Below are positions 12,462 through 54,798 of a stretch of 64,000 nt of DNA, piece by piece. Position 1 is the stretch's first letter, and each line of letters begins with the position of its first letter. The notes below the pieces were generated by a model. The model did not search any database and was not told the origin of the DNA. It saw only the letters and a program-made list of their open reading frames with translations. Made by a program: the position numbers and the translations under genes. Source of the stretch: Bacilli bacterium (GTDB lineage Bacteria > Bacillota_I > Bacilli_A > RF39 > UBA660); the NCBI GenBank assembly GCA_017527675.1, contig JAFXPU010000002.1:6400-70399 (forward strand), given 5' to 3'.

Positions 12462-12482
12462 ATTAATTATAACATATGTAAA

Positions 12483-15110: not shown

Positions 15111-15123
15111 AACTATAACTTTT

Positions 15124-16681: not shown

Positions 16682-16887
16682 TTAAATCACACTCCTTTAT
16701 TTTCATAAAGGTCTTGATCAAAAAGTAAATTTTATATAAAAAAGACAAGACCTTTATACTTAAAAGTCTTGCCCAAGATACTCTTTATTATACCGGTTAT
16801 TGCTAACGTGTGACGATATAATACATTTAAGGACTACTCCCTTTCAATTGAGATATATAGTAGCACAAAAAGGCTTATTTGTCAAAT

Positions 16888-24343: not shown

Positions 24344-24469
24344 CTCCTAAATATAATTATATCATACAGATATAAAGAATAATCCGTTAGTGGGCTACTC
24401 ATTTTTATTCTATACTAATTTATCATAATTCTAGCCCACAATTCATCACATTGTTTTTGTCTATAAAAC

Positions 24470-24506
24470 AAAGTAAAAATAAAAATAAAATCCCACAATT
24501 GTGGGA
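24470..24506 (-). terminator. Palindrome CCCACAATTGTGGG followed (on the minus strand) by a T-rich tract; candidate terminator of the SNF2-SWIM operon
   Basis: Perfect 14-nt palindrome at 24492-24505 flanked by an A/T run. A second palindrome, TTTTGCAAGTGCAAAA, sits at 24510-24526. Confidence 0.4.
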
Positions 24507-24670
24507 TAATTTTGCAAGTGCAAAATAAGTTTGATATCACTCTTTTTCTTATGAAATAAGGAAATATTGAGTATATAGATATCATTCTCTTATGCTCTTG
24601 CTAAAATATTCTATAAAATTCCATGATTTGTGGGACATTATAGCCCATTTATGGGATTATAAGTCAATAA

Positions 24671-31397: not shown

Positions 31398-31956
31398 TAT
31401 TATTGGTATAAGTGGTAGTCCTAGAATTAATAAAGGATCATCATATAACTATTTAAAAAGAGTAACTAACAAAATAATAAGTAGTTATATATATAATAGT
31501 AAGGACCTTAAATTAATTAAAAAAAGCGATACAATTATTTTTTCTTTTCCTTTATTTGTTGATTGTCTGCCTTCACATTTCTTAAAATTCTTAATAGAAT
31601 TAGATAATAATAAAATAACTAATAAAAATATCTATGTAATATGTAATTTAGGTTTTTATGAAGGAAAACAAGGTAATATAGCTATTGAGATTATGAAGAA
31701 TTGGTGTCACAGAACCAATAATAATTATATGGGCGCTTTAGTAATTGGTGGAGGTCCATTATTTAACTATCCTGTTATTAAACTTAAACCAAATCACTAT
31801 TTAAAAAAACTAAGTGATTGTGCTATTAATAGTAAATTATTTAACGATAAATATATAGCTCCCCTATTACCTAGATGTATTTACTATAGATGTGGTAATA
31901 TGAGTTTTAAAAATGATATAAAGAAAAATGTAGTCAAAAAGAAAACCATTATTTAA
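31390..31956 (+). CDS. Flavodoxin-family protein
   Basis: Overlaps the previous gene by 8 nt; similar size and layout. Confidence 0.45.
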   Translation: MSNIIGISGSPRINKGSSYNYLKRVTNKIISSYIYNSKDLKLIKKSDTIIFSFPLFVDCLPSHFLKFLIELDNNKITNKNIYVICNLGFYEGKQGNIAIEIMKNWCHRTNNNYMGALVIGGGPLFNYPVIKLKPNHYLKKLSDCAINSKLFNDKYIAPLLPRCIYYRCGNMSFKNDIKKNVVKKKTII

Positions 31957-31961
31957 ATAAT
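31936..31961. terminator. Bidirectional hairpin overlapping convergent stop codons
   Basis: AAAACCATTA-TTTAAA-TAATGGTTTT, a perfect 10-bp stem. Confidence 0.5.
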
Positions 31962-32345
31962 GGTTTTTTCATTTTCATCTTTCATAGGCATCACAATATA
32001 TTCTGCACCATCACTATTAGTAATATAAGCATCACTATTAATATTCTTTATAAGGTTAAAATCACTTTTGTCTAGTTTGTCAAGGTGCTTTTCTAACAAT
32101 GATTTATCAATATTATTACCTTTTATAGTATAAATATATACGTTCTTATCTAAATAAAGAAAATCACAACTATTATTGTCTTTTAAATAATATATTGGTC
32201 TTAAATTATTCTTTTTAGCATTTAGCAAATCTTTAAATGATTGAACAAAGATAATATTTTTAGAAAATAGTCTAGGAATATTAACTATTTCTACTAGAAT
32301 GTTATCATACTTTTTTAAAGTATCTTTAATTAATTTATTTCCCAT
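31953..32345 (-). CDS. Hypothetical 130-aa protein, last gene of the TasA/SipW-like cluster
   Basis: Start overlaps the stop of the SipW-like paralog by 11 nt. Confidence 0.4.
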   Translation of the reverse strand: MGNKLIKDTLKKYDNILVEIVNIPRLFSKNIIFVQSFKDLLNAKKNNLRPIYYLKDNNSCDFLYLDKNVYIYTIKGNNIDKSLLEKHLDKLDKSDFNLIKNINSDAYITNSDGAEYIVMPMKDENEKTII

Positions 32346-33540
32346 TAATATTTCCTTTTACTAAATCCTTAAACCAAATAGTTGGATAAGCTATTTTTTT
32401 AACTTTAAAGTTATTATAAATACCTATTAAATCTTTTTTAGAAATATATTTATATGTATATTTATTATTTGTTTTAGTCTTTTTAACATATAAACTAACT
32501 ACATCATCTTCATTAACTTCCTTTAAAGCAATACGATCAATAATAATTTTATTCTTTGATTTATATGCTATAATATCACCTTTTTCATAATCATCATATT
32601 TTAGTCCTTTATAGATAATAATAGCATCACCTTTTTCAATTTTAGGGCCAATTGCTGATGTATCTACACCAATTAAATGATATGAGAAAATACCAGATAT
32701 TAAACCAACAAAGATAGTTATAATAATAATTAAAGGTATATCTAGTAAGAATACTCTTAAAGTATTTAATTTTTTATTTGGTTTTTTATTCTCAGGATTC
32801 TTTTCATATTCTTTTTCTTTAACATAGTATGTAATCATACGACTACCATATATATATAATAATGTTGGGAAACATATATTAATAATACTAGTTAAATAGT
32901 TACCTAAATCTGGAACAGATGGCACTAAATAAATATATAATCCTAAAGTTATAACATATATTAAACATGGTAAGTAACCAACTTTATCTGTAAAATATGT
33001 TAATACAATATTTTTAAATATAACTGGTATAATAACAACTGTTAAGAAAATAAACATATTTTCAGCTGTTACATCAAATGTATAAAAACATAAACTAATA
33101 TCAAAGAAGATAATAATTAGTATACCAAGCAATTTAGCATAATTATATTCACGATTATTAGTAATATAAATATATCTAAATACTTCTAAGGCTGTTACAC
33201 TTATAAGTGGAGCCCAGATGTTTTTTAGAATACTTACAAATCTTAAGGAATAAGAATTTCTTAAAAATCCAGTAAATAATCCAAGTAAATATATAAAAGT
33301 GAAATAGATAAATATTCCAATAATAAATTCATAGATTATTTTTTTAGTTATTTTAGTTATTTTTATTTTTTTATAATCATAAATAAATATACTTATAATA
33401 GTAATTATTAGAATGAAGAATGCACTTAATGTATGTGCTAAATTAGGTAACTTTGGAACAATTAAAATAAAATAAATAAATGTATAAATGAAGGTAGCTG
33501 TTAAGACTAATAAATTTTTAACTGTATTTTTATTTATCAC
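32335..33540 (-). CDS. SipW-like (S26B-type) signal peptidase paralog fused to a polytopic membrane domain; probably catalytically degenerate
   Basis: 401 aa. About 8 TM helices (aa 1-270) followed by a peptidase-like fold GVDTSAIGPKIEKGDAIIIYK...IIIDRIAL. It is homologous to 52948..54135, but Ser-Met is replaced by Ala-Ile and the HRI His by Asp. Confidence 0.55.
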   Translation of the reverse strand: MINKNTVKNLLVLTATFIYTFIYFILIVPKLPNLAHTLSAFFILIITIISIFIYDYKKIKITKITKKIIYEFIIGIFIYFTFIYLLGLFTGFLRNSYSLRFVSILKNIWAPLISVTALEVFRYIYITNNREYNYAKLLGILIIIFFDISLCFYTFDVTAENMFIFLTVVIIPVIFKNIVLTYFTDKVGYLPCLIYVITLGLYIYLVPSVPDLGNYLTSIINICFPTLLYIYGSRMITYYVKEKEYEKNPENKKPNKKLNTLRVFLLDIPLIIIITIFVGLISGIFSYHLIGVDTSAIGPKIEKGDAIIIYKGLKYDDYEKGDIIAYKSKNKIIIDRIALKEVNEDDVVSLYVKKTKTNNKYTYKYISKKDLIGIYNNFKVKKIAYPTIWFKDLVKGNINGK

Positions 33541-33548: not shown

Positions 33549-34247
33549 CTACTTTTCAACATAGACAATCTGATATTCAAGACTAAGCATTTGAGCTTCA
33601 TCTGGTAAATCAGAGGCCTCTATATCAGTTCTAAATTTTAAAACAAACTTAATTGTCTTTTTACTATGTGCACTTAGTGTATCATTTATATCTATTTTTG
33701 TTCCATCTTTATACGTAATTTCATAATTTAAATATCTTTTTTGTCTAGTTGTTAAACCTTTATTAATTATTTCAAATATTTTAGCATCATGAGAACCGCT
33801 ATTAACTATATCAACTGTAAATTCATAATAGTCACCTGGTTCTTCTAATTTAACTTCATAATAAATATCTGTTTTATTATTAGCTATTTTGGCTTTAGTA
33901 ATTGGTTCAACTGAACCATCTTTTTCTTTTAGATTTTCAAATTCAATATGCCAATCTAAATCTTTAATTTCGGTTGTTCCTGTTTCAACTGGAATATATA
34001 CAGCAGGCAAGACACGACCTGGTTCTTTATCTGGCTTTTGAGGTTCTGGTTCAGGTTGTGGTTTATCTGGTTCAACCGGTTTAGGTTCATTTCTTTTTAT
34101 AACTTTTATACCTAAATTAAAGGCTAAAGAGGCATATGCAATAGATATTAAAATTAAAACAACAATAAATGATAAAAAGTATACTGGTTTAGCTTTAGTA
34201 TCTTCTATTTCAATGTCATCTATTTCCTTTTTTACTTCCTCATTCAT
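33549..34247 (-). CDS. Membrane-anchored TasA/camelysin-like domain protein
   Basis: 232 aa. TM anchor FLSFIVVLILISIAYASLAF, a Pro-rich spacer (EPKPVEPDKPQPEPEPQKPDKEP), then a domain aligning with the giant protein N-domain (EPGDYYEFTVDIVNSGSHDAKI ... LSLEYQIVYVEK). Only 8 nt gap to the SipW-like gene. Confidence 0.5.
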   Translation of the reverse strand: MNEEVKKEIDDIEIEDTKAKPVYFLSFIVVLILISIAYASLAFNLGIKVIKRNEPKPVEPDKPQPEPEPQKPDKEPGRVLPAVYIPVETGTTEIKDLDWHIEFENLKEKDGSVEPITKAKIANNKTDIYYEVKLEEPGDYYEFTVDIVNSGSHDAKIFEIINKGLTTRQKRYLNYEITYKDGTKIDINDTLSAHSKKTIKFVLKFRTDIEASDLPDEAQMLSLEYQIVYVEK

Positions 34248-34299
34248 ATTATCACCTATTGTTATAATTTTACCATAAATAAGCTTTTTTTTCTATATA

Positions 34300-34336
34300 T
34301 GAAAAAAAAAGATGAATTATTAATTCATCTTTTTTC
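34300..34336 (-). terminator. Intrinsic terminator downstream of the giant gene
   Basis: AGATGAATTA/TAATTCATCT hairpin flanked by a T9 run on the minus strand (A9 at 34301-34309). The T run at 34328-34336 also allows plus-strand function. Confidence 0.7.
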
Positions 34337-34339: not shown

Positions 34340-37300
34340 TTACATCATAAATTCAAGAATGCAGTATTCATATTGGTCATCAACGGCAGGTACTATCTTG
34401 ATTTGGTAATTTCTTTCAGTATCAGATGTTGCAGATCCAGCTGTACGAGCATTTGTTGAACCTGTAAATTTACCATCATAGAAGTTGAATGCACCATTAC
34501 CACGAGATATACCATAACCAGTTGTTGTACCTATTGCTTCAATATATGGATCAATTGTTGATGTTGTAGTTGAATCAAAACCAGTGTTTTCTTTAATACC
34601 TAATGTTATAGAACCACTAGTTGAATTATCATCTATTCTTACACCATATGCTGTAGCAGCATGAGCATAAATATTACCAGTTTCAATTGTATATGAACCA
34701 TTATTAACAAACGCACCATAAGCTGATGTTGTACCATTTACATGATAATCAGCATTACGTGTTACTAATGTTCCTTTATCCACATAGACACCATATGTAT
34801 TAACTGAATCAGTTGAATTAAATTCACCACCATCAACTGTAATATTACTATTAGTATTATCTGCATAAATACCAAAGGCATTATTAGCTCTATTAATATT
34901 AATTTCAATATTACTGATTGTTGATGAATTAGAAGAATTATCAAGTATAGCATACATTCTCTCAGCTTTATTCATTGTAAATGTATCTCCATTAGATGTT
35001 AAGATAGCTGTATTATATATACCAGCTTCATATCTATAATAATATGTTCCATTTTCATAAGTACGATTTAAAGTATAATCATTACCAGTAGTATTTAATG
35101 TACCACTATTGCTAATAATTCTTACATAATTATTAGTACCTGAATAAGTATCTGTAAATACAACCGTATTATTATTCAATGTTAAAATACCACTATTACT
35201 TATCATATTAAATTCAGAATAATTACCATAACTATGTGTAATATTAGCTTTCTTAATTGTTGTTGTACCTGTATTAGAAATAGTTCCTTTAATATCTTTA
35301 ATATTTGTATTACTAATACTTAATGTACCATTTGTTTTAGTATTGTTAATATTACCAGTTATTTCTGTATCAGTTATTGTTACATTAGGTGTTGAATTAA
35401 TATAAATTGAATTTGTACCTTGTAATATAGAATCACTAATTGTATTTGTTTTAGTTGAATTATCATATATTACATAATTACTTCCTTTAACAGTTGAATC
35501 ACTGATTGTATATTTTCCTGAATTTATAATTGCTTGATTACGTGAAATATTTGTAGCATAAGTTATTGTTAATACTCCATTTTCATCATTATCAACAGCA
35601 TTATAATTTTCTAATTCAATATTACTAATTGTTAAATTATCTTTATTAATAAGTGCTGTAACAGATAAACTGTTGCTTAATTTTGAATCATTATTTGTAT
35701 CTAAATTTGTAATAACTAATGTACCATTGTTGGTAATTGATTTTGTCATATTAAGATTATGACCATGTAAATCAATAGTAATTGTCTTACCTGTTGGAAT
35801 TGTTACAGCATATGACAAGTTAGCATCAGCATTAAATTCTAATGTTGCACCATCATCTGCTAAATCAATAGCCGTTTGTAAATTAGAACGTGGTTCTGAA
35901 GGATTACTACTATCTATAATGAAAGGTTGTTCTAACACAAGATAGATTTCCTTAATAAATTCTGAGGCATAGATTGGTTCAACTTCATAGCCATACATTC
36001 TCTTATTATATAAGTTTGGATTAGCTATATAACCAGATCCACCTCCAGCTCCACCATGACCGCGGTTAGATCCACCACCACCGTAGTAACCACCACCGCC
36101 ACCGGCGCCGCCGTAGCCTGAATTACAGAAATTAGATCCTTGGCCAAATGAACCATAGCCACAACTACCATTAGCTAATTTACCACCTGATGTTTGTGTA
36201 GCACCGGTACCATTATATGAGGTGTATGAATTATTATATCCATCGTAACCAGAGTTACCTTTATAACCACCAGCATTTCCACCTGGTGAAGTAGTACTAG
36301 AACCTCCAGCTCCACCACCACCAGCAGCTACGATTATAATTGCATCTTTATTACTTTCAAGTGTTGATAATAATCCTGAGGCTGTAGCAATGTGTGTTGC
36401 TCCACCACCGCCATATGACCATTGGCCGCCGCCTGAGCCACCATTACCACCGCCGTTGTAACCGCCATCATATTGAGTTCCAACACCACCAACATTAATA
36501 TATAATGTTTCACCAGCAGTTAAATCAATATAACCTTCTGAATATCCACCATAACCACCATTTGAGCCTCCACCTTGAGCACCCCATGCTTCTAATCTAT
36601 ATGTTCCTGTACAAGGAACAGTAAATGTATTTTCAGCATTTTCAGGTAAATATGAATATTCGTGATTTTGTTCACATACTCCCTCAACAGTTTCACCAAC
36701 ATAAGTAATTTTAGCATAACCATTATTCATTTTTGCATAATGACTAATTGGATCCTCAGATACACTTGTTGTTGAATATGTTCTATATTTTTGATTATCT
36801 AATGATATTTCCCCAGCATTACTTTCAAATATTTCATAACCACTTCTAACATTTGAAATAATACTATTAACAGCTTCATTAGTACCAATAATATGACCAG
36901 AATATATATTTACACTTGCATTAGAAGAATATATACCAAATAAACCACCATTAACATATGGATCAGTTATATCATTTTCATCTTCTAAATTACCGATTGT
37001 TACATATATCGTTTCACTAGCTTGTTGTATACCATAAATTGGAGCTATTATTGTTCCTTTATTTAAGTTTAATGTTGTTGAACTATATGCAGGATAAGAA
37101 TACATATATACACCAACATTACCTGATGTTATTTCTCCACCATTAATGTTTATTGTTTCATGACTTTGTGAATAATAACCCGGACTACTATAACGGTATA
37201 TACCATAAGCATCTGCACCTGGTGTTGTAATTATCGTATTACCATTTATTTCTAGGTAACCACGTTCATCATTTATACCAAATGCGTTACTTGCACCAGC

Positions 37301-40300
37301 ATTGATTGTTACATCTGTTAATGTTACTGGAGCATATTTATATATACCAGAAGCATTATCTGCAGTTATAGTAATATCACTTATATTACAGTTAGATTCT
37401 GATGTACAATATATTGCATAATAATCTCTATTAGTTGCAGTTGTGATTACTTCGGTATCACTACCACTGATAGTTAAATTATCATATTGTGATCTAATTG
37501 TATGTTCACCACCAGTAAATGTTCCACCAGTAATAGTTATTGTTCCTTTTGGATTCTTATAAGAATCACTATAAATAGCTGAACTATTTGTCGATGTAAT
37601 AGTACCATCTTCAACTTTTACTTTTGTACCATATCCAGCTAACCTAATTGATTCTGCTGTTGTTTGAATTGAACCATCTTTCATTTCTAACTCACTATTT
37701 TGACCATTTAGATAAATAGCAACATTTGTTAAATCAAATGAACCATTATTCATAATTATCTTTTGAGCTGAATCAAGATAGATTCCACGATATCCTTCAA
37801 ATGTTGGATTATTTTGTAATGTTATTGTTCCTGTTCCAGATGAACCATAAATAGAACTTCCAGCAGATTTTAGATGAGCACCATCTAATACCATTATTCC
37901 TTTGTTTTCAATAGTATTAGTAATAGTATTATCTAATAAACCTGAACCATTATCGTAAATAGTTAAAGTTCCTTCATTAACAAGTGGTTGAGTCATTGTT
38001 AATGTTTTACCATTCATATTAATAGTAATATTTTTTGAACTTGGAATTGTTGCACCAGATTGTACAAAAGCAGATGACTTAACTAAAATTGTTCCTGTAT
38101 CTTCAATTGCACCAATTGCTGCAGTAAATGAATTGTATTCATCACCATTTACTATTAAGAAGGCTTCTTTTGGAACTAGATAATTAACTATCCAAATATC
38201 AGTTGGAATTTGGTAACCATACATTTCTCCACTAATTATATTTACATCTTTTATGTAGCCTGAGCCACCGCCGCCAGATCCGGCAATGTCTGAATTAACA
38301 CCAGAACTACCACCACCGTAGTAGCCACCGCCACCACCAGATGAATAGTCTGTTCCATTTGCACCTTTACCAAATGAACCAGCAGCACCATTATTATATG
38401 TACCTTCACCAGCAGCACCACCTGCAGTTTGAGTACCACCACCAGCTAATTTAGTTAACGATGGTTTAGACTGACCACCATGGCCACCTTCATTACCACC
38501 ACCAGATCCACCTTGAGCATTGTATGATCCGTAGCTACCACCGCCACCACCACCGGCAACAATGATAATATCATCTCTATTATTTTCAAATGTAGTAAGT
38601 AAGCCAGATGATTTAGCTATATGAGTAGCTCCACCACCAGCATAATAGTTATCACCAGTAGAATTACCACCACCATTATAGCCACCTGTTGAACCAACAC
38701 CTTGACCACCTACATTAATATATAGAGTATCTCCAGCAGTTAAATTAATTTTACATGTTGAGTAACCACCATAACCACCATTTGGTGATCCACCTTGAGC
38801 ACCCCATACTTCTAATTCGTATGTTCCTGTTTCAGTAACATTAAATGTTTGTTCTCCATTTGTAAAACTAAATGTTTCAGTTTCATCTTCAGCAATGAAT
38901 GTTATCTTAGCATAACCGTTTCCTTGTTTAGCTTTCTTACTAACTGGATCCTCTGATACTTCTTCTGTTGAATTTGTAATTATATTACCAGTTACTGAAG
39001 AACTCTCTTGTACTGTAGCAATATCATATGCTTCACGAGTTGAAGAGAAATCACTATTATATCCAGCAGAACTTCCTCTTAAACGTCCTGAATAGAAATT
39101 AGCAGTACCAGCTTCTTTATAGATACCATATGTTCCACCTGATACATATGGATCATAGATATCATTCTCATTATTTAAATTACCAATAGTTGTATATACA
39201 GTGCTAGATGTTTGTTGAATACCATAATTCTTACCTGTTATAGAACCATTATTCATATTAAGAGTTGTTGAACTATAAGAAGGATAAGAATACATATATA
39301 CACCAACATTACCTGATGTTATTTCAATATCATTAATAGTAATTGTTTCATAACTTTGTGAATAATAACTTGGACTACTATAACGGTATATACCAAAAGC
39401 ATTTGAACCTGGTGTATTAATTACTGTATTACCATTTATTTCTAAGTAACCGCGTTCATCATTAATACCAAATCCATTGCTTGCGCCAGCATTGATTGTT
39501 ACATCTGTTAATGTTACTGGAGCATATTTATATATACCAGAAGCATTATCTGCAGTTATGGTAATATCACTTATAATGCAATTAGAATCTGATGAACAAT
39601 ATATTGCATAATTATCTCTATTTGTTGCGGTTGAAATAACCTTTGTATCGCTACCACTAATAGTTAAATTATCATATTGTGATCTAATTGTATGTGTTCC
39701 ACCAGTAAATGTTCCACCAGTTATATTAATTGTTCCTTTTGGATTCTTGTAAGAATCACTATAAATAGCTGAATTATTCGTTGATGTTACAGTACCATTT
39801 TCAACTGTAAGTTTTGTATTGTAACCAACTAATCTAATTGATTCACTACCAGTTGATATTTCTCCATTTTTCATCTCAAATTCACTGTTTTGAGCATTAA
39901 GATAAACACCTACACCTGTAGTATTAATTGTTCCGTTATTCATGATAACCTTTTGAGCAGAATCAACATAAATACCATTATATCCTTCAATAGTTGGATT
40001 GTTTTGTAATGTTATTGTTCCTGTTCCAGCGTTTCCACGAATAGCGTAATTAGTAGATTTAATACTTGCATTATCAATTACTAATGTACCTTTATTGATA
40101 ATAGCATCAGATGCTTTATTATCAATTTTACCTGTTAATCCAGGTTCATTCATTATCGTCAATGTTCCTTCATTAGTAATTGGTTGAGTCATTGTTAAAG
40201 TATGACCTTGTAGATCTAGAGTAATATTATTTTCACTTGGTACGGTTGCTAATTCTTGTAGACTTGCATTTTTAAATACATAAATTGTACCTGTATCCTC

Positions 40301-43300
40301 TACATCACCAATAGCAGCTTCAAGTGAATTATATTCAGTTCCGTTATATATCAAGAATGCTTCCTTATTAACTAAATAATTTACAGTCATTGAATTTCCA
40401 TAGTCAGAATAAGTATACATTACTTTATTGCTTAAGCGACTGTTGTTATTATAACCAGAACCTCCGCCACCAGCTGTAGCATAGTTGTTACCAGCAGCAC
40501 CACCACCGTAGTAACCACCACCACCGGCACCACCCATAATTTTATTTGAAATTGTTGATTCAGGACTACCACCTTTACCAAATGATCCATTTCCTAAATT
40601 ATTATTATAGGCAAAGTATCCAGGTCTATTTACTGTTGCACCAGTACCATAGTACTGTGGATAAGATGGAGATGGAACACCATCTGCAGCTCTGTAACCA
40701 CCGGCATCTCCACCAGAACCATATTCTGAAGAGCTCCAGTAACCAGAACCACCACCACCACCGGCAACAATTAAAATTGCTTCTTTATTATTTTCTAATG
40801 TTGATAACTCACCTGATGTTGTAGCAACATGTGTTGCTCCACCACCAGATCCAGAATAGAATCTTGTTGATGGATAAAGCATTACAGCATCTCCACCACC
40901 ATTATAACCACCTGGAATAGTAGTGTTATTATCATAACCTATTGTACCAGCACCACCAACATTAACATATAGTGTTTCACCAATACTTAATTCAATTTCA
41001 CCTGTAGCATATGAACCATATCCACCACGAATTGATTCACTATATGAACCACCTTGAGCACCCCATACTTCTATTTTGTATAAGCCAGCACATGGAGCAC
41101 TAAATGGTGCTTCTCCAGGTTCAGTAAATGAAGTAACAGAATTTTGTTCGCATACACCCTCAATAGTTTCGCCTAAATATGTTATCTTAGCATAACCATT
41201 ATTCATTTTTGCATATTCACTAATCGCTTCATCAGAAACATTATTAGTGACAATTGTTAAATTCTCTGATGTATTTTCATGTTCACTAGTAATTTCTTTT
41301 GCAGCACGTAATGCATTAAAATCTTGATTATATCCGCCTGATAAACCTCTTAAACGTCCTGAGTAGAAATTTGATGTACCACCATTTTTATATAATCCAA
41401 ATAATCCACCTGATACATATGGATCATAAATATCATTTTCAGCATTTGGATTACCAATTGTAACATATACAGTACTTGAAGCAGCATGGATACCATATGT
41501 ATCACCAACTACTGAACCATTATTCATTACTAATGTTGTTGTACTATAACTTTGTCCTGAGAACATATATATACCAACATTACCAGATTTAATATCAACA
41601 TCATTTATAGTTATAGTATTATAACTTTGACCATAATAACCTGGATTACTATAACGGTATATACCATAAGCACTACCTCCAGGTGTATTAATTATAGTAT
41701 CACCATTAATATTTAAATTACCACGTTCATCATTAATACCAAATGAATTATTAGCATTTGCATTTATTTCAACATCTGTTAATGTTACACTACTATATGC
41801 ATATACACCTGAGGCATTTTCAGCTGTCATTGTTGAATTTGTAATATTACAATCAGATTCAGAATAACAATATAAAACATACTTGTCATTACCTGAACCA
41901 GTAACAATCATATCCGTACCACTAACTGTTAAATTATCATAGTAAACTCTAACAGCACTTGATACACCAGTTATAACACTATCAGTTATCTTTATAGTTC
42001 CTCTTGGACTCTTATAAGAATCACTAAAGTAACCATAAGTACCTGTTGAAGTAATATTACTTCCATCAATTGATACCTTAGTATTATATCCTAATGTTCT
42101 AATTGCCTCATTTACTGCTGTAATAGAACTATCATTAACTTCTAATTGACAATTAGTATTTTCTAGTCTTATACCAACATTAGTTGCATTAATATCTGCT
42201 TCATTAACCACAAATTTTGAATTATCTTTGTTACATGTTAAAGCATTATAACTATTTATAGTTGTACCATCTAATGTTGCTGTTGTATTTGCATTAGTAA
42301 ATTGAATAGATGCACGTTGTCCATTATCAATAATATTCGTATCACCAATTGTTACATTTTTAGCAACTTCAATACCTTGAATATTACCACCACTAATAAC
42401 ATAATCTTCATGATTACTTAATAAAGCATATGTATCACTTTTTAAGTAAGAATCATTATCCATTGTAAATGTACCAACGTTATTAACAGCATAACCATTT
42501 TTAGCTTCAATACTAGAATTAGTAATATTTAATGTTCCATTATTATTAATAGTATTACTATTTGTAACTTGTTTTAAAATAATATTTTCAATAGTTAACT
42601 CGCCATCATTAGTAATTGGACTTGCACTTGTAATTGAACCTGGATTTTCAGATATATCATAGATTCTTAAAGTACCATTATTAGTTATTGGACTACCTGT
42701 TGTAATATTGTAACTTTGCATATTTATTTCAATATCATAATCTTCTCTTATTTCAATAGCATATGATGCCTCAAAATCTCTTACAATATTAACTGGTTTA
42801 CCCATATAGTTAGCTGTATCTATTGCATTTTGAAGATTGAAGAAATATTGAACATTTTCTCCACCATTTTCAATGATTGCAACAGCATTAGCTGGGTTAC
42901 CATTTAAGAAACTTCTTTGATATATTGTTCCAATTACTGGTTCTGTATAGAATGTATATCCACGAGGTAATGAATTAACTCCACCATTTAGAGTAAATTG
43001 ACCTTGTAAATATCCATCATAGAAGTTAAATGAGCCATTTTGTTCTAATGCTACTGTTGAACCAATAATAGCAATTGCTTCTGTTTCAATAGTTCCGTCA
43101 TTAACACCCATTGTTAAAGTTTTATTATTAACAAGACCAGTACCATCTGGATTATTAATAGTACCATTTAATAAAATCATAATACCATTATTAATAAATG
43201 CACCAGTTAAAGTATGACCACCTAAGTTGAAGGTTACATTCTTATTATTAGTTACATTTTCAGTTGTATCTTTAATAAGTTCAATTGTATCATTTTCATT

Positions 43301-46300
43301 TGCAGCTGCTAAAGCTTCAGCAATAGATACATAGTATTCATCGCCTATTTTAGCAACAGCATCATCATTAACTGTCCAAACAGCTGTAACAGTAGCATCT
43401 GATAAATTCATTGTTACAGTATTACCATCTAAGATTCCAGCCTCAGATGCTTCCCAATGATTGAATGTACAAGCATGTTTTTCAAGTTCACTTGGATTAT
43501 CAATTAATAGATATGGTTCACCATGTTTTAAGTAAACTAATCTAACTTCTTTTGATCCTTTATAGTATCCAGATTTTGGATCTATTGTTAAATATAAATC
43601 TGTATTACCAGCTATAATATCATCTATTGATAATGATTGAAGATATTTTCTTTCACTTTGTTCTTCATGTTTTGTAACAACACGTGCAAGATTAGCAATA
43701 GATGTTATTTCACCTTCCATAGCTTGGCTACCTTCAATATAACCATCATACATATTAAATGTATTATTGTTTTGTACAGCTATATTTTCACTTATTATTC
43801 TTATACTAACACTTGATACAGCTTCATCATTTTGACCCATGTTAAATGTACCATTATTAACAACAGCATAATCATCAAAGTTCATGATTGTACCATTATA
43901 AATATCAAGTGTACCATTGTTAGTTACTTTGGCTGTAATACTATATCCACCTAAATTAACTACTGCTTTACGACCAGAAGCAACTTCAATTTCGGTTTCA
44001 TCAGAAATTGGTTTTAATAAAGTAATCACACCACCTAATTCTTCATCATAAGCATTAATAGCAAGTTGTAATGATGAATAATAAGTTTCACGATATACAG
44101 CAACAGTTTGTCCACCGTAATCATTTTTAATATTTTCTAGCCATGCATATTCATAACTAGTTTCTTCATCGACATATGTTGTAACTTCTTGATCTTTTTC
44201 AACTAATGTAGTAGTTCCTACTTTAGCAAAACGAGAAGCCCAGATAACACCATCGTAGAAATTGAATGATCCATTTTCTTTATCTACACCAATACCTTTT
44301 GTAGTACCAATTGAGTGGATAACTGGATTTTCTTGAGATACATTATCTACTGAGTTGTCATAATGACCCATGATAAATGTACCTGGATTAATGTAAGCAC
44401 CATAAGTTGTTGGAGCATCAGATACATTAATTGAACCAGTTAATAATGTAGTTTGGGCATTAGCAGTAACCATATAAACACCATAGTTTTCAGCACTACC
44501 AACGGCATTTATTTCTGAATTATCAATTAAAGTGTTACCGCTGCCACTAGTTTCAATACCATAGTATTTACCAGTTTTTTGTTCAGCATGTCCAACAGTT
44601 AAACTACTTTCATTTTCTAATGTTAAAGAACCTGTATTAGAAATACCTTTAACGTAATATTTATAAGTATTAGTCTCATCAACTTTAATATTTGTATTAT
44701 TGATATCCATTGTTCCACTATTATAAATAGCTACATAAGTATCACTATAATTATAGTTTTGTGGACTACCTAAATTAATATTTGAATTATTAATAGTCAT
44801 AGTTGCTGAGTTACTAATTGAACCACCATTTGTATTAGTAACATTTACTCTTTCGAATGTTGCAATAGAATTACTTGAATTTGATATTGATCCATTAGAA
44901 CCAATTATGATATTAGTATCAGTTACATCTAAAGTAGTTCTTATACTTTCAATGTTTCCATCAAGTACTGTATTAATTCCATTACCAACAACAGTTACAG
45001 TTGCTTGGGAATTATCATTAGAATAAATACTATAGTTTTCACCACTATAATTACCACCAGTAATAGTAACATTTTTAGTATTATTAATTGCAATTTTACT
45101 AGCTACAATATTTGAAGAAGTTATATCTAATGAATTTGTATTATAAATTGCATTAATAGCATTCATTCTTGAATTATTAATTACTAAATTACTTGTATTG
45201 TTAATTATATAATTTGATGAACTAACATTAGTTAATTTAATGTTATTAATATTTAGAGTTCCATTATTATTAATTAAATTGATTGCAGATGAAGTTTTAA
45301 TATTTGCTTCATTTTCTGAATCATTAATTAAAGTAATGTTACCATTATTCGTTATTGTTTTATTTGTTGAAATTGTATAACCATGTAAGTCTAAGTTGAA
45401 ATGTTTAGTATTATTATTTGTAACAGAATAGTATAAAGGAACATTAGCTACTAAGACAACTGTTTGATCTGTATCAGCATCATTTATAGCTTCTTGTAAG
45501 TTAGTATATTCAACTCCTGTTTCCCTGTTATATGCTATAACACTTTCCATAATTAAATATTTAACTTTATAAGTTTCACCATCAATAATTTCTGTATCTG
45601 GGAATATTTGAGCATGAGGAGGAATATTAGAAATAATTCCATATTCAGCTTCTGTTGTTCCTTTTAAGATACCATCATAGAAATTAGTTGTTCCACCATC
45701 AATATATAAACCATAGAAAGTACCTTGAATCATTGGTTGAGTTATATCAATGCTATTATCTTCCACAACACCTAATATTGTTGTTCCAGTTGTATAAACA
45801 CCATAAGCACCACCAATAATAGAACCACCTGTAATAACACAGTTATCAGATGATGTATTTAAACCATTGTTATCTTCACCAGTAATAATACCGCCTGTAA
45901 TTAAGATTGTATTACCTGAATTAGTATTTGCAACACCATTTGTTTTACCAGTGATTGTACCACCATTGATAACTACATGGCCTAAAGCATAATAACTACC
46001 CTTAGTAACAGATACAGCAGTGCCAACTGTAGATGTAATAGTACCATCATTGATAGTTGTTGTACCATCTTGAATAGCAACAGCATTACTATTTGCTACA
46101 TTTGATGTAATAGTACCGCCATTAATAGTTGTTGTACCCCAGCTATCTAATGAATATGTATCAGTTCCTTCAATAGTACCACCATTAATTGTTAGAGTAC
46201 CACTACTATATACACCACCATAGTTATTAATTGTTAAATTATCAATTGTTAAAGTACCACCATTGTTAATAGCATAATCTTGATCAGCATTATATGTACC

Positions 46301-49300
46301 ACCTTCAATAGTAAGAGTACCAGTGTTATAAACAGCAGCAGTATTATATCCATCCGCATTACCATTTGAACGGATATTAGTTATACCACCATTACCAACA
46401 CTATCTTTAATTGTGTTAGTACCTTTAGTTTGAAGTGGTTGAGTCATAATAACTGAATGACCATTTAAATCGAATGTTATGATTTTACCATATGGAAGTT
46501 CTTGTTCATAATCAACATAAGCATCAGCAATAACTTCAATTGTACCTTCAGAATCAATTGCTGCTGTTGCGTTAGTTAAGGTATTATATTCAACTCCATT
46601 AACTCTTAACCAGTTACCAACTGGAACTAAATATTGAGTTTTATAATAATCACGATCAATATAAGTATAATCATCTTTGATCATATAAGCATCAGGTATT
46701 AAACCAATTAAACCATTATGTGGTTCTTCCATACCTTGTAAAACGCCATCAAAGAATTTTGTATAAGCAGTTGTATTTAAACCATATCTTTTACCAGTTA
46801 ATGATGGAGATTCAATTGATACATTTTTCTCATCATCACCTATTTGCGTTTCAGTTGATGTATAAACTCCATCAACTTCACCAATTATTTCACCAGCATG
46901 GATAGATAATTTAGCACCAATTGCATGAATACCATAAGAATCAGTACCTTTAACTTTACCACCAGTTATGTTTATGTCGTGGTAATAGCATCCACCCCAT
47001 CCAGAGTAATAACAGATATGTTCAATACCCATTGTACCAGTTACTTCACCGCCTGATACATTAGTTACCTGAGCTGTAACAACAGCAACACTATTATTAG
47101 ATTTAACTTCACCATTGGAAACTGTAATACTACCATAGTAAGAATATAAAGCATTATGAGCATTAGCTTCTACACTACCACCATCAACATGAATAGTAGC
47201 ACCAGCTCCCCCAATACCATAATTTTCGCCAAATATTGTTCCACCATCAACATAAACAGTTCCAACATTATAGTTGTATGGTGATGAAATACCCATATCT
47301 GAACCAGTAATAGTACCACCATGAACAGTTGTGTTACCTCTGTTGTTAATACCAGCAAATGATTCTTCAATATTGATATCATTTATAACTAAATTAGCAT
47401 CGTTAGTAATTGCATATTTATTAACATTAAAATAAGCATTGTTAATTGTAAGTAGACCAGATTCATTTATGATAACTTCATCTACTACTTCTGATAAATA
47501 ATTACCAGCTTCAATAGTTAATTTATTTCTATTTGTAATACCAGCAATTCTTGTTGGTTTTATTGTACCTAAATTACTGTCATCAACAATTGTTACATCA
47601 GAATCATTGTATATTGTTTGAGTACTTGTAATTGTATGACCATTTAAATCAAATGTAATATGTTTATAGCCAGTTTCTTCTGTACCATTATCAACAAAAT
47701 GTTGAGTAAATACTAAATCAGCATCTTTAATAACTGTAATGGTACCTGTTTCACCTTCACCAATAGCTTTAGATGCAGCATCGATAGAATTATATTCTGT
47801 ATCACCAACTTTTAACCAATTTTCATAATGAACAATAAAATCAGTTTGATATAAGTTTCCATCAATTTCTTCTTCACCTTCACCACCAACGCAGGCAAGT
47901 GGTAAACCAGTAATACGACCTTCATAACCATCTACTTGACCTTTTAAAATACCATCATAGAAATTAGTAACAGGTCCATCAATATATAAACCATAAGCAC
48001 CACCAATAATTACTGGATAATCTTCTGGCTCATCTTCATCAGTGTCTTCAAAACTGCCTATTGTTAAAGATCCTTTATTATAAACGCCATAGTTTTCACC
48101 ATAGATATCTGTTTCACTACCTGTAATTGTACCAGTACCCATTACCGTAATGGCATTAGCTTCACTACTATGTACTTTACCACCACTGATATTTAAGTTA
48201 GTTGTAACCAATGCATCATTTGCTGATAACACTTCACCACCAGAAATAGTAGCAGATGAAACCGAAACTGCACGACTTTCTGATGTAACCTTACCACCAG
48301 TAACTGTTAAAGAATTATTTGAATAAACACCATAATTTTTACCAGTTATCTCACCAGCAGAAATATTAACGTTGCAACTACTGATACCAATATTTTCACC
48401 TTTAACAAGTCCACCATAAACATTAACAGTTTGACCACCGCAAGATATAGCAGTATCGTTATCAGAATAAACATCACCAGCATAAACATTAACAGTTGCA
48501 CCACTAATAGCAATTCCATTAACTGATTTAATTTCGCCATTATTATTAACATTAACAGTACCTGATGAAATAGCATTACCTTGGCTAGTTATTAAACCAC
48601 CATTAGCATTAACAGTACCATAGCCATCATAGTAATTAGATATACCTGTTGTTTGAGATGAAATAGTACCATCATTTACAGTAATAGTTCCTCTATTGTA
48701 TATCATTGTTGTATCATAGTTTGTACTTATTTCACCAGCATTCATTGTAATAGTTCCTGTATTAGTAATAGCTGGAATATAATTTCTATCATCTATTTTA
48801 TAAACATGTAATTTAGTATTTTCATCTAAGACAATTGAACCAGTATTATATAAACCATAAATAGTACCATCATCAACAACTAAATTATCTGATTTATTAT
48901 ATAAACCATAATTACCAGTTGAATCAATTAATGTATCCTCAGTAAAGGTAATTACGGCATCAGTATTATTATAAATACCATATCCACCTTTAGAAGTAAT
49001 TTCTGTATCATCTAAGTTTAAAGTATTATTATTTTGAATTACGTTACTATCAGTTGTTGCTACAAGATCAACATCATCAATATCCATAACACCATTATTA
49101 ATGATTGTAAATGATGTTTTTAATTTACCATCGTCTTCAGCAGAACTTAGTATCTTGAAATATCCATTATTAGTAACTGTATTACCAATTGATACTGTAT
49201 GACCCATAGTGTCAAAGAATAATCTTGAGTTTTCAGGAATTTCTATTTCATAAGGTGCTTCAAAATTACGATGAGCATAAACTATAAAGTTTGAATCTAA

Positions 49301-50812: not shown

Positions 50813-50842
50813 CTAAAAAAAAAGCAAACTTGATAAGTTTAC
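50813..50842 (-). terminator. Intrinsic terminator between the 249-aa gene and the giant gene
   Basis: Minus-strand hairpin GTAAACTT-ATC-AAGTTTGC followed by T8-9 (A run at 50815-50823). Overlaps the upstream gene's stop codon. A TATAAT element lies about 40 nt upstream of the giant gene ATG. Confidence 0.5.
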
Positions 50843-51588
50843 TTGATTTTTTCTATTATTAATTTATTATCCTTAACAGCAAATTCAACAATTACATCAT
50901 TATCAACTTTTCCTATCTTGGAAATATTGTCTTTAGTAATCATTTTTTTAACTTCTTTAGCCTTAGCTTTTCCCTTTAAATAATCAGATATAGCCTTAGT
51001 ATCAACGTTATTTTGGTTATCTTTAAATTTATTATTTAAAAGACTAATATCATTATAATAATTCAAGATTTTATAAGGATTATCAACTACATATTTACTA
51101 AATGTTACTTCAAATTTTTTGTTATTTATTTTTTTAATTTTCTTTAATTCAAATTTAACAATTTTAGTTTTCGCAATGTCTGATTTTATATTAGATTTAT
51201 TATAAGTATAACTAGCATTACTAAGATCAAACACAATTCCCTTATCAGCCATATAAGGAGTAATTCCAATACTTGCAACTGCATCAATATCATATTCTTT
51301 ATCAAAATATTTGTTAACAACTTCAATTATTTCATTAGCGCTAAAAACGTTTTTATCGGTATTATTATAAAGATATTCAATAGCAAAACAAATATATTTA
51401 CCGCTTTCATCATCATGTTCTGTTATTTCCTCTAAATAATCAGCTATTTCATTACTAGTTTCTTCAACTTTTATTTTCTCTAAATTAGTCATTTTCTTTG
51501 ATTTTTTAAAGAAAATGAAGCAAGCTAAAAGAATAATTAAAAATGCTATAGCTATTATAAAATACTTATTAGTTAATACTTTTTTCAT
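50839..51588 (-). CDS. Membrane-anchored hypothetical protein (paralog A)
   Basis: 249 aa, N-terminal TM helix. Paralog of 51596..52351 (shared GITPYMxD, KKxKVT(F/Y)xKYV(V/I)(D/E)NPY(K/E)(I/V)LNYY). Confidence 0.5.
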   Translation of the reverse strand: MKKVLTNKYFIIAIAFLIILLACFIFFKKSKKMTNLEKIKVEETSNEIADYLEEITEHDDESGKYICFAIEYLYNNTDKNVFSANEIIEVVNKYFDKEYDIDAVASIGITPYMADKGIVFDLSNASYTYNKSNIKSDIAKTKIVKFELKKIKKINNKKFEVTFSKYVVDNPYKILNYYNDISLLNNKFKDNQNNVDTKAISDYLKGKAKAKEVKKMITKDNISKIGKVDNDVIVEFAVKDNKLIIEKIK

Positions 51589-51595
51589 ACTTCAC

Positions 51596-52351
51596 CTACT
51601 TTATCTTATCTATTAATAATTCATCATCTTTGACAACAAAAATAATACTAATTTTTTTATCATATTTAGCAAAATTCTTAATATCATCCTCATTGATTAC
51701 TTTTTTAAATGATGATAACGAACCAGAACCCATTAAATAACTTTTTATTGGGCTTAAATCGATTAAATCTTGTTCTTTTTTTTGCGTATTTTGTTCCATA
51801 TAATAATTTAAAACTTCATATGGATTTTCAATAACATATTTTTCATATGTAACCTTATATTTCTTACGGTTTACCTTACTCATTTTTTTTACTTTATAGT
51901 ATGCTATTTCTTTTTTAGAAATAGTACTAGCATCAACAGTATTAAAAACTATTGAATAAGTATCATTTCCAGGTTCATAAGATACATTATTATCTAACAT
52001 ATATGGTGTAATACCAACATTTTTAATATCATCTTTAGTAATTTCTTTATTAAAATTATCCTTAATAAATGTTGCTATTTCTTCACCCGTTAACCTATTT
52101 TTATTTAATTCTATTTTATTATATATCAAAGCATAAACAATATATTTTTCGTCATCTTTTGCATCTACATCTAAGTAATTTAAATAGTTAATTATTTCAC
52201 TATTTTTCTCTCTAATATTCTTCTTTTCTAATGATGATAAAGATCTAAAATGAAATAAATATATCAAAATAGTTACTAAGAATATAAAGCCTAATCCACA
52301 TAATACTATTAGGCCTAATCTACGGTTATCAACGTTTATTTTATTTTTCAT
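51596..52351 (-). CDS. Membrane-anchored hypothetical protein (paralog B)
   Basis: 251 aa, N-terminal TM helix; 7 nt gap to paralog A. Confidence 0.5.
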   Translation of the reverse strand: MKNKINVDNRRLGLIVLCGLGFIFLVTILIYLFHFRSLSSLEKKNIREKNSEIINYLNYLDVDAKDDEKYIVYALIYNKIELNKNRLTGEEIATFIKDNFNKEITKDDIKNVGITPYMLDNNVSYEPGNDTYSIVFNTVDASTISKKEIAYYKVKKMSKVNRKKYKVTYEKYVIENPYEVLNYYMEQNTQKKEQDLIDLSPIKSYLMGSGSLSSFKKVINEDDIKNFAKYDKKISIIFVVKDDELLIDKIK

Positions 52352-52382: not shown

Positions 52383-52940
52383 TTATTTCTTGATTAAAAT
52401 AACTTTATATGTTTTATCATTACTTAATTTAACAATTGTATTTGAATCAATATCATCTGTTAATTTTTTCTCATCTATTAAATCTAAATGTTTGTTAATT
52501 TTTTCAACAAACAAGGATTTACTTTTATCATTTTTATAAAAAACATAATATAATAATTCCTTATCAGTTTTAACCATAAAAACACTAGAATTATCCTCGC
52601 CTAAGTACATAATAGGTGTATCTAATTGCTCATGAGCTTTTACAAGATCATTAAAACTTTTTACCTTTAAAACATCATCATTAGCAAAATTATATTCGTT
52701 TTCCAAATAAACAATATCTGAATTATATATACGCAATATTCTTTTTATAGTTCTTAAATAATTAGATTCGTCGTCTGTTTTTCTAATCATTAAATATACT
52801 AAATAAATAATTAGAATTGCCATAATAGTTACAAAAACAATGGCATAATTAATAGCATCATTTAAAAATGATATAAATGAAGCCAAAAATAATCCTAATA
52901 TTAAAAATCCTAATACTATTATTTTATTTGTATTATTCAT
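52383..52940 (-). CDS. Small membrane protein (2 TM) of unknown function
   Basis: 185 aa; start 8 nt after the SipW-like stop. Confidence 0.45.
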   Translation of the reverse strand: MNNTNKIIVLGFLILGLFLASFISFLNDAINYAIVFVTIMAILIIYLVYLMIRKTDDESNYLRTIKRILRIYNSDIVYLENEYNFANDDVLKVKSFNDLVKAHEQLDTPIMYLGEDNSSVFMVKTDKELLYYVFYKNDKSKSLFVEKINKHLDLIDEKKLTDDIDSNTIVKLSNDKTYKVILIKK

Positions 52941-52947: not shown

Positions 52948-54135
52948 CTACTTAAACATAATAGCCGGATATGCTATATAAGGTATACTAAAAACAACTT
53001 TACCTTTAATTTGCTCTTTTTTTACATATCCTTTATCAGCTACATTATTATAATCACCTTTGGTAATAAATGTATTATCACTATTAACTTTAATAATACG
53101 ATGAACAATTAATTCTTTTTCATCAGTTTTAAAGGCAATAATGTCGCCTTCTTTTAACTTGTCAACACTAAAATTTTTAGATATTATAACCGCATCCCCA
53201 ACATTTAATCTTGGAGTCATTGATCCAGTTTCAATACCCACTAATTTATAAGGCCCAATACCCGCAATTAAGCAGTATATTATAACAGCTGCAACAGCAA
53301 ATGGAATATCACTCAATTTAAAGAATGAACGTTTTTCTTCTTCTAATTTGACTTTTGAATCCGTTTGTCTAGACATTGTTATAGTGATTAAAAATGGTAA
53401 TAATAATAGGCCCAAACTATTAATATAATCATTTAAATCAGGTACAATTGGTACAATAAATATATATAATTCAGTTAAAAATCTATATAATAATGGTCCT
53501 TTATAATCAGCATAGTATACTGCATAAGTACACATTATATTTTTAAGAATTGATGGTAACATAATCGTAGATACTACATCAAACAATTCATAACTATCAG
53601 TTAAAACATCAAATCTTATATTAATAATTATATCTAATAAAGCTAATATTAAGGTAAAAACAATAATATTTGCTTTACTCTTTTTATTAGCTTTAATATA
53701 AACAAATCTAAGTATTTCCTCTAATATAATAATTAATATTAAAAAAAATGTATTATTTATAATTGATAATGGTTTTAAGGAATAAGCATTTTTTAAAAAA
53801 GACGAAGTAAAACCAATACCATATATTAAAGCAAAATACAAAGTTGCAAAAATAGCTATAATTGATATAAATACTTTATTGTGTTTTAAATTAACCTTTC
53901 TTTTAAAGCCATAAAAATAAATAGCCAAAGAAGTAATAATCATTAACACAGATGTAGTTATAGCATCAGCATATTTTAATACATTTGAGTACACAAAAAA
54001 TCTATATATTAAAATATATATAAGAATACTTGTTAAAATAACTAAATTGTAAATATTTTTCTTCTTCTTCTCTATCATACTATCCCTATATTCCATTATA
54101 ATTTTATCATTTTTTTGATATAAAAAAAAGAGCAT
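52948..54135 (-). CDS. SipW-like (S26B-type) signal peptidase fused to a polytopic membrane domain; catalytic Ser and His present
   Basis: 395 aa. About 7-8 TM helices, then IETGSMTPRLNVGDAVIISK (GSMxP Ser box) and ELIVHRII (His box) as in SipW/Sec11-type peptidases. Begins 9 nt after the TasA-like gene. Confidence 0.6.
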   Translation of the reverse strand: MLFFLYQKNDKIIMEYRDSMIEKKKKNIYNLVILTSILIYILIYRFFVYSNVLKYADAITTSVLMIITSLAIYFYGFKRKVNLKHNKVFISIIAIFATLYFALIYGIGFTSSFLKNAYSLKPLSIINNTFFLILIIILEEILRFVYIKANKKSKANIIVFTLILALLDIIINIRFDVLTDSYELFDVVSTIMLPSILKNIMCTYAVYYADYKGPLLYRFLTELYIFIVPIVPDLNDYINSLGLLLLPFLITITMSRQTDSKVKLEEEKRSFFKLSDIPFAVAAVIIYCLIAGIGPYKLVGIETGSMTPRLNVGDAVIISKNFSVDKLKEGDIIAFKTDEKELIVHRIIKVNSDNTFITKGDYNNVADKGYVKKEQIKGKVVFSIPYIAYPAIMFK

Positions 54136-54717: not shown

Positions 54718-54798
54718 TACACACACCTCTATCTTAGTACATTATAACATATTAATTCAATTATTGTTATATTTTTTTGAAAAAAAACAAAAAAAGAG

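Follow-up and report, generated by a model that had tools for sequence, protein, structure and literature searches.

A stalked pilin-like protein encoded beside a catalytically inactive signal peptidase: a candidate membrane anchor of a putative donor-strand system in uncultured Bacilli

Introduction

Fibres of the donor-strand (TasA) type, which occur in archaea and in Gram-positive bacteria, have been recognised as a class only recently, and ideas about their attachment to the cell are still largely conjectural. The same question is raised by a gene cluster in the window analysed here, a 64,000-nucleotide (nt) stretch of contig JAFXPU010000002.1 (assembly GCA_017527675.1, Bacilli bacterium). 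The cluster encodes a giant protein of 5469 aa and, next to it on the minus strand, a protein of 232 aa in which a Pro-rich spacer links an N-terminal hydrophobic helix to a pilin-like β-domain. Does the 232-aa protein remain in the membrane and hold the giant at the cell, or is it processed like its secreted relatives? The reading preferred here, with a probability of roughly 0.5, is that it is an uncleaved, membrane-held basal acceptor subunit and serves as the anchor by which a donor-strand system like those of the TasA superfamily displays the giant.

Architecture and Conservation of the 232-aa Protein

The 232-aa open reading frame (ORF) is preceded by a GGTGA ribosome-binding site ~6 nt 5′ of its start, and its product is identical to MBR3523189.1, listed at NCBI as a "hypothetical protein" of a Bacilli bacterium metagenome-assembled genome (MAG). 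Its orthologs form 15 clusters (90% identity) that are 39–97% identical to it, and the ratio of nonsynonymous to synonymous substitution rates (dN/dS) is 0.19 against the ortholog in locus L001, which is 77% identical. A first-pass annotation, made by a model from the letters and ORF translations only, had described a transmembrane helix that leads into a Pro/Glu/Lys-rich linker and then a distal domain. The ORF, the AlphaFold2 (AF2) model and the layout common to 15/15 ortholog clusters all bear out this order of parts, which a charged N-tail precedes.

The N-tail (residues 1–20) has a net charge of −4 here and is basic in distant orthologs. It is followed by the 22-residue hydrophobic stretch that the annotation had described, V22–F43, over which AF2 places a helix (residues 20–44) at a predicted local distance difference test (pLDDT) score of ~81–85. 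Residues 45–95 of the model are disordered, and the linker that had been quoted, PKPVEPDKPQPEPEPQKPDKEP, sits exactly at residues 55–76. The spacer holds 11 Pro in 35 residues against a Pro content of 2.05% in the window proteome (binomial 7e-11), in which every other 35-mer has five Pro or fewer. A Pro-rich spacer is found in all members of this putatively anchored subfamily, with its sequence variable and its Pro richness kept. The distal domain (residues 96–232) is modelled with eight β strands at pLDDT >93, has a dN/dS of 0.125, conserves W99, P137-G138, G151 and Y229, and ends in YVEK directly before the stop codon.

A Duplicated Module With an Inactive Signal Peptidase

On the minus strand, the genes run in the order 193-aa, 395-aa, 185-aa, two of ~250 aa, the giant, 232-aa, 401-aa and 130-aa (Table 1). 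Each of the last three has its paralog among the first three, in the same order (E = 5e-15, 3e-40 and 6e-9, respectively). At the level of sequence, the 232/401/130 triad arose by duplication of a set made up of a subunit, a multi-transmembrane (TM) SipW-type peptidase and a DUF5305-like accessory protein. In the duplicate, the subunit gained a long N-tail and a Pro-rich insertion, and the adjacent peptidase lost all of its catalytic residues. The triad is tightly packed, with an 8-nt gap between the 232-aa and 401-aa genes and an 11-nt overlap between the 401-aa and 130-aa genes. Since a hairpin and a promoter-like site lie 5′ of the 232-aa gene, the triad may be a transcription unit of its own.

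Both peptidases have ~nine hydrophobic segments before the catalytic domain, and they are 31% identical over their full length. The 395-aa protein matches TIGR02228 at 2.2e-24 (86 bits, above the cut-off of 51.85) and Peptidase_S26 at 1.1e-7; the 401-aa protein matches TIGR02228 at 3.1e-11 (43 bits, below the cut-off). Where an active enzyme has the Ser motif GSMxP, the His motif xHRx and the motif GDxN..D, the 401-aa protein reads TSAIGP, IDRI and KKTKTNNKYTYK. A HMMER search of 1.84 billion representatives returned 1099 peptidase relatives, of which 139 full-length top matches were compared. The pattern S-M…H-R…G-D-x-N…D is strictly kept in 129 of these, and the catalytic residues are missing, with no fixed replacements, from the 401-aa protein and from P0121–P0124, P0144, P0180 and P0270, which together make up a small clade. 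The dN/dS of the 401-aa gene is 0.15 overall, and is 0.11 for the peptidase-like domain against 0.17 for the TM domain. These values rule out a decaying pseudogene. Judged from its residues and substitution rates, the 401-aa protein is a conserved pseudo-enzyme.

The third member of each set is DUF5305-like. The 185-aa protein matches this family at 1.8e-6 (28.0 bits, just under the cut-off of 29), and DUF5305 matches are also found in the orthologous loci. While the 185-aa paralog and most orthologs (199–220 aa) keep two TM segments, the 130-aa protein has none and would therefore be cytoplasmic.

Conservation of the Pairing Across Loci

The putatively anchored protein and the pseudo-peptidase are encoded side by side in 8/8 informative loci. 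The order of stalked subunit, pseudo-peptidase and DUF5305-like gene recurs in the window, L001, L002–L004, L005, L006, L007 and L014; two further loci with a pseudo-peptidase are uninformative, the upstream gene being cut in L010 and the neighbour being unrelated in L012. In most loci with this order, a very large protein and two ~250-aa genes precede the stalked subunit, and L005 has both an active and a dead peptidase. Synteny with the giant, the small subunit and the peptidase modules holds across lineages down to ~40% identity. The ~250-aa proteins, each with an alpha/beta-looking domain, are present in every locus that has the stalked module and are absent from L008, a simpler locus (9857–14459) from another Bacilli MAG that is without this module. 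There, the genes of two secreted family members with large enzyme-like C-terminal domains (331 aa and 572 aa) precede those of an active multi-TM peptidase and of a protein with DUF5305. Further upstream, L008 encodes a small surface protein of the NPxTx-like kind and a sortase.

In L011, pseudo-peptidase P0144 follows a 197-aa relative of the 232-aa protein (38% identity, E = 4e-23). The helix of this relative ends …LVYISVI, which places Ile at position −1 and leaves no A-x-A site, and the spacer lacks the Pro richness. A search with the 197-aa protein for further non-cleavable anchors returned only the protein itself.

Domain Family and Fold

The first-pass annotation had counted the distal domain as the third TasA-like domain of the locus. 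That it is a third copy of one pilin-like domain is confirmed by its homology to the N-terminal domain of the giant (40% identity, E = 2e-28) and to the 193-aa secreted protein (30% identity), and by the AF2 model of the latter (pLDDT 88.5), which has the same eight-strand layout. The wider family runs to at least 143 clusters, among which no Pfam domain and no source annotation were found. Every one of them stems from metagenomes or from MAGs labelled as uncultured "Bacilli bacterium" or Firmicutes.

The label "TasA-like" had also been applied to this domain. Sequence searches provide no match behind it: a Pfam and NCBIfam scan of the 232-aa protein gave chance-level matches only at E ≤ 0.1 (DUF6479, 0.016; WxLIP_PGBD, 0.034), and in searches of PDB sequences profile A1 returned only TM-helix noise (gustatory receptors and rhodopsins) and profile A4 nothing, with no TasA, AbpA or TapA chain at E ≤ 10 for either. 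The remark that the protein lacks sequence similarity to TapA thus holds for PDB chains, among which TapA should be included. On the structural side, when the 193-aa model was compared with 350,542 PDB chains, the TasA fibre came first (8aur, E = 3.4e-3), followed by the bundling pilus of AbpA (7ueg, 7.3e-3) and, in third place, by the thread Saci_0406 (7pnb, 1.5e-2). The 232-aa model finds its best fold matches in Pap pilin domains, in AbpA and TasA, and in CS20 and the 0406 thread. The locus also carries the accessory set reported for TasA-superfamily loci: a SPase I (signal peptidase I) of the ~ten-TM type, DUF5305, a tip-like giant and minor subunits. Taken with the predicted fold, this context makes "TasA-like" reasonable at the level of superfamily and architecture, though not demonstrated.

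The Giant Protein and the Envelope

The N-terminus of the giant reads …SLGSA↓FLKSTLSING, with a predicted mature N-terminal peptide FLKSTLSINGNSTI… (arrows mark predicted signal-peptidase sites throughout). Its only Pfam match is to three glycine-rich ALK_LTK_GRD domains (E = 1.7e-84), and its C-terminal part is Asn/Thr-rich and repeat-like, with orthologs of up to 6162 aa (L001). Neither LPXTG nor any other C-terminal sorting signal or anchor was found in it. As far as its sequence can tell, the N-terminal pilin-like domain is the only visible means of attachment.

The window encodes a D-Ala-D-Ala ligase and a lysozyme-like/SLT protein, one relative encodes a sortase, and another the spore protease GPR. 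Gene content thus shows an organism that makes peptidoglycan, and a wall is to be expected because of the ligase, the lysozyme-like/SLT protein and the sortase of the relative. A wall-less, membrane-only envelope is ruled out by the two genes in the window.

A Candidate Basal Anchor

With a third copy of the domain, a conserved hydrophobic segment, a Pro-rich spacer and an anchorless giant in one cluster, a cell-proximal anchor is the most economical reading. It had been proposed from the sequence at first sight, and it is plausible and strengthened by context: the dead peptidase paralog is always adjacent to the 232-aa gene, and the L011 relative has Ile at −1. What does not stand is the notion of a purpose-made TM anchor, since the helix corresponds to the signal peptide of the family and still has its processing motif intact. 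The duplication, the missing catalytic residues and the synteny are observed, and all further steps of the model are inferred. The signal-peptide-like segment of the duplicate-module subunit would stay in the membrane as a signal anchor, its invariant S-I-A-Y-A-S-L probably being clasped by the dead 401-aa peptidase, and the small, presumably cytoplasmic DUF5305-like 130-aa protein would be the third partner. The Pro-rich spacer of ~50 residues (≤~15–18 nm when extended) would carry the β-sandwich domain into or through the wall. There, the open groove of the domain would take up an N-terminal strand that processing has set free, either from the secreted subunit nearest to the cell or from the N-domain of the giant, which would end polymerisation and fix the structure to the cell. 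The giant would be displayed, possibly on a stalk of 193-aa subunits; the 193-aa protein is a candidate for the major subunit.

Such an anchor would explain the co-duplicated and co-conserved dead peptidase, the spacer, the lack of an anchor in the giant, and the stricter-than-needed conservation of the motif, which is S-I-A-Y-A-S-L-A in the putatively anchored subfamily as compared with [GAV]-Y-[AS]-x-L in the family. A more specific version can be put forward tentatively, in which the 401-aa protein is a substrate-trapping pseudo-signal-peptidase that permanently clasps the uncleaved S-I-A-Y-A-S-L of the 232-aa protein, so that the duplicated module forms a membrane base plate whose wall-spanning Pro-rich stalk holds a giant adhesin or a donor-strand fibre. 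A subunit would then possibly be matched with an inactive duplicate of the enzyme that processes it, and this pair would both terminate and anchor the fibre. A literature search on these subjects found no paper on an inactive signal peptidase with a donor-strand anchor, and the papers cited here mention no inactive paralog of the peptidase. The proposed partnership with a pseudo-peptidase is what is most novel about the locus.

Is the N-Terminal Helix Cleaved?

In ~100 family members, the hydrophobic stretch ends in [G/A/V]-Y-[A/S] and is followed by x-L-x-T-T-L-x-I-N-G-x-A, with a conserved Trp exactly 18 residues after Y-[A/S]. This N-terminus looks like a SPase I site (small residues at −3 and −1) joined to an amphipathic strand at fixed spacing, as in donor strands. 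In a MAFFT alignment, ISIAYASLAFNLGIKV of the 232-aa protein lines up with the end of the signal peptide and the N-terminal strand of secreted paralogs, for example ISFGYA↓ELKTTLSINGDA and SIAYA↓SLSTILEISGNA (P0016–P0018). By homology, then, the anchor helix is the signal peptide of the family plus its donor-strand segment and not a new element. I36, Y38, A39, S40, L41 and G46 are invariant among 13 orthologs of the putatively anchored subfamily, and the Ala residues at −3 and −1 fit SPase I. The first-pass description of the helix as uncleaved-looking therefore fails. Because the A-Y-A↓S-L motif is invariant, cleavage is compatible with the sequence, and a cleavable signal peptide, which the annotation had named as grounds for giving up the anchor, has to be reckoned with.

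Several observations weigh against retention in the membrane or against a fibre role. The motif is not only intact but identical from −5 to +2 to that of the secreted P0016–P0018. The hydrophobic span up to the A-Y-A site measures 19 residues, and so does that of the 193-aa protein. Residues 40–50 keep an alternating L-F-L-I-V pattern like that of a donor strand, and conserved polar or small residues (N44, G46 and K48) are odd for a plain TM helix. A longer TM helix would be expected to show as a more hydrophobic segment after the site, yet the hydrophobicity of positions +1 to +12 overlaps that of the secreted paralogs and does not discriminate an anchor from a signal peptide. Segment-wise conservation, which in the helix of an anchor would be expected to exceed that of a cleavable signal peptide, is alike in both ortholog sets, with the same unusually conserved c-region and strand, and does not discriminate either. 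The flanking charges of the 232-aa protein do not favour an N-in topology. The variant without A-x-A is confined to a single lineage, L011. The fold matches are all weak (E ≥ 3e-3, none <1e-3; TM-score ≤0.36). Finally, the cleavage of the secreted paralogs is itself inferred.

The strongest alternative is possible: the 395-aa peptidase would cut A39↓S40 and release a minor subunit whose strand, SLAFNLGIKVI, sits on a long, flexible, Pro-rich tether. It would serve as an initiator, adaptor or cap, with the pseudo-peptidase as an assembly platform or holdase, and its strand could be lent to the empty groove of the N-domain of the giant or fold back onto its own groove and thereby end the fibre. 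The processing motif is as good as in the secreted paralogs, the combined length of h-region and c-region equals that of the cleavable ones, and the donor-strand alternation is kept, residues 21–50 having a dN/dS of 0.09. The distance from the site to the Trp, which is rigidly 18 elsewhere, is 40–84 aa in the putatively anchored subfamily (59 aa in the 232-aa protein), owing to a Pro-rich insertion of 22–66 residues between strand segment and domain; this spacing could permit fold-back in cis. TapA, a known minor partner of TasA, is cleaved and donates a strand. However, cleavage would leave the giant or fibre with no identified attachment to the cell and the constant presence of a dead-peptidase neighbour unexplained. 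The long and often acidic N-tail is atypical of a Sec signal peptide, S-I-A-Y-A-S-L-A is conserved beyond what cleavage needs, and the divergent L011 member with Ile at −1 does not fit.

A different use of the strand would be an uncleaved, membrane-tethered, TapA-like chaperone or nucleator that lends residues 40–50 to exported subunits, so that these stay competent for assembly or begin to polymerise at the surface of the membrane. Although a strand-like pattern is kept beside the helix, strand complementation by TapA provides a precedent, and the gene is co-conserved with a membrane complex, this is improbable: the Pro-rich stalk and the conserved distal domain would have no role, and AF2 puts residues 40–44 inside the helix, so that the strand-like segment may lie within the membrane. 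Equally unlikely is a stand-alone membrane-tethered surface protein (receptor, binding module or regulator of the active peptidase) with no fibre at all, for which speak the weak fold matches, the fact that polymerisation of the family has never been demonstrated, and the many members with enzyme-like or binding C-terminal domains that do not look like pilins, but against which stand the strict synteny with giant, small subunit and peptidase modules, top fold matches that are specifically donor-strand filaments, and an invariant N-terminal strand at the fixed spacing typical of donor strands.

Comparison With Known Systems

TasA fibres assemble by donor-strand exchange. Their accessory TapA, a substrate of SipW cleavage, has an Ig fold that is complete and contributes its N-terminus as the donor (PMC10151520). 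The likeness of TapA (YqxM) of B. subtilis to the 232-aa protein, in the role proposed here for the latter, is that of a low-abundance accessory of a SipW-dependent donor-strand fibre that is encoded beside the peptidase and implicated in attachment or nucleation. Unlike the 232-aa protein as an anchor, TapA has no TM anchor in its mature form; its V-set Ig fold is complete, and it is a strand donor. In the 232-aa protein, the N-terminal helix leads through the Pro-rich spacer to a homologue of the subunit domain. The functional analogy to TapA drawn in the first-pass annotation is therefore mechanistically wrong. A protein anchored at its N-terminus and held on a stalk would have to accept a strand, and in this it would resemble the Tafi anchor more than TapA.

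Tafi pili have been modelled with a tip (TafC), an adapter (TafE), a core (TafA) and an anchor (TafF) that, in AlphaFold models, accepts the strand of the last TafA subunit, along with the peptidase TafD and the DUF5305 protein TafG (PMC11821415). Anchors with a TM segment plus a jelly-roll have been predicted as TafF in Haloarcula hispanica and as TafF1 and TafF2 in Natrinema sp. J7-2 (PMC11821415; PMC12337348). Like the 232-aa protein, they have one TM helix and a pilin-like jelly-roll and cluster with pilins, SPase I, DUF5305 and a tip, a likeness of architecture only, with anchors that are themselves predicted. They differ in being archaeal, in the C-terminal anchoring of TafF and in having no Pro-rich stalk. 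A dead peptidase paralog has not been reported for Tafi, and the helix of the 232-aa protein, unlike that of TafF, can be seen to descend from the signal peptide of its own family. By analogy, the closest functional counterpart would nonetheless be a Tafi-type anchor rather than TapA.

In bacteria, AbpX-type loci encode a SPase I with ten TM helices, DUF5305, and minor and tip subunits, and their anchors are SLH or LPXTG proteins (bioRxiv 10.64898/2026.01.04.697558). The window shares with them the many-TM SPase I, the DUF5305 accessory, the minor subunits and the tips, a likeness of locus content only. The differences are that their anchors are not N-terminal signal anchors and that the family motif of the window, x-L-x-T-T-L-x-I-N-G, differs from that of AbpX.

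More distant parallels can be drawn for both partners. PapH of chaperone-usher pili and the basal pilins of sortase-assembled pili are specialised paralogs of the subunits that are added last and fix the fibre to the envelope. The 232-aa protein is likened to them by analogy and not by homology, as the systems have different chemistry, use other machinery for secretion and assembly, and do not donate strands in the same direction. The iRhoms and Derlins are rhomboid-related pseudo-proteases that bind clients without cleaving them. They differ from the 401-aa protein in fold and family; the parallel is a dead membrane protease paralog under selection that, in the role proposed here, would hold a substrate-like TM segment.

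Features of the Locus and Its Surroundings

The features of the cluster are collected in Table 1. A dGTP triphosphohydrolase (HD domain, NF002327, 3e-86; 54799–55968, minus strand) is encoded immediately upstream of the cluster, and a FIST-domain protein (56036–57202) lies in divergent orientation to it. On the other side, an ApeA-like HEPN protein (ApeA_NTD1 and HEPN_Apea) is found beside a SNF2/DUF3670 helicase and a 326-aa gene (23060–28256, minus strand), a group that may be a defence island. Positions 13043–20098 encode a TraG/VirD4-like type IV secretion coupling protein, a bacterial serpin (355 aa) and a 986-aa VWA/TSP3-repeat protein; the VWA protein is encoded near the cluster in L001, too. 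ParB, ParA and the D-Ala-D-Ala ligase are encoded at 60378–63104. The window belongs to the chromosome and probably lies close to the origin of replication.

Table 1. Features of the putative fibre cluster, in window coordinates; the rows on residues refer to the 232-aa protein.
Feature	Position	Strand	Remarks
130-aa DUF5305-like alpha/beta protein	31953..32345	-	paralog of the 185-aa protein
401-aa pseudo-peptidase	32335..33540	-	~nine TM segments and SipW-type signal-peptidase-like domain
232-aa ORF, putatively anchored pilin-like protein	33549..34247	-	ATG start; orthologs; dN/dS
Residues 96-232, eight-strand beta-sandwich pilin-like domain	33552..33962	-	AF2; paralog comparison
Residues 51-95, disordered Pro/Glu/Lys-rich spacer	33963..34097	-	insertion specific to the putatively anchored subfamily
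Residues 40-50, SLAFNLGIKVI	34098..34130	-	counterpart of the paralogs' N-terminal (donor) strand xLxTTLxINGxA
Residues 37-40, A-Y-A↓S	34128..34139	-	inferred signal-peptidase processing motif of the family
Residues 21-43, hydrophobic helix PVYFLSFIVVLILISIAYASLAF	34119..34187	-	homologous to the signal peptide of secreted paralogs
Residues 1-20, charged N-tail	34188..34247	-	presumed cytoplasmic; poorly conserved
Promoter-like site 5′ of the 232-aa gene	34295..34267	-	extended -10 TG
Hairpin and U-run directly after the stop of the giant gene	34302..34336	-	AT-rich; minimum free energy -18.3 kcal/mol, z -3.97
Giant 5469-aa protein	34340..50749	-	signal peptide, strand and pilin-like domain at N-terminus
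Two paralogous ~250-aa proteins	50839..52351	-	one N-terminal TM segment each; 35% identity, E 8e-34
185-aa DUF5305-like accessory	52383..52940	-	two N-terminal TM segments
395-aa active-type multi-TM SipW-type signal peptidase I	52948..54135	-	GSMTP, VHRI and TKGDYNNVAD motifs intact
193-aa small secreted subunit (190 aa from ATG)	54145..54726	-	signal peptide …GYA↓ELKTTLSINGDAKI, then domain

Implications

The locus comes from uncultured gut or rumen Bacilli and from a family without a Pfam entry, and it sets out a contrast within one operon set: a secreted subunit with a live peptidase, and a stalked subunit with a dead one. If the 232-aa protein is cleaved after all, it would represent a new kind of minor subunit with a tethered strand. 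If it is an anchor, the locus would illustrate how evolution can turn a signal peptide that is cut off into an anchor that stays, by a simple path, and a pseudo-signal-peptidase would have been assigned a function for the first time, going by the literature searched. The locus would also make a testable prediction for metaproteomics, and would explain how an adhesin of 5469 residues is retained at the cell without a sorting signal.

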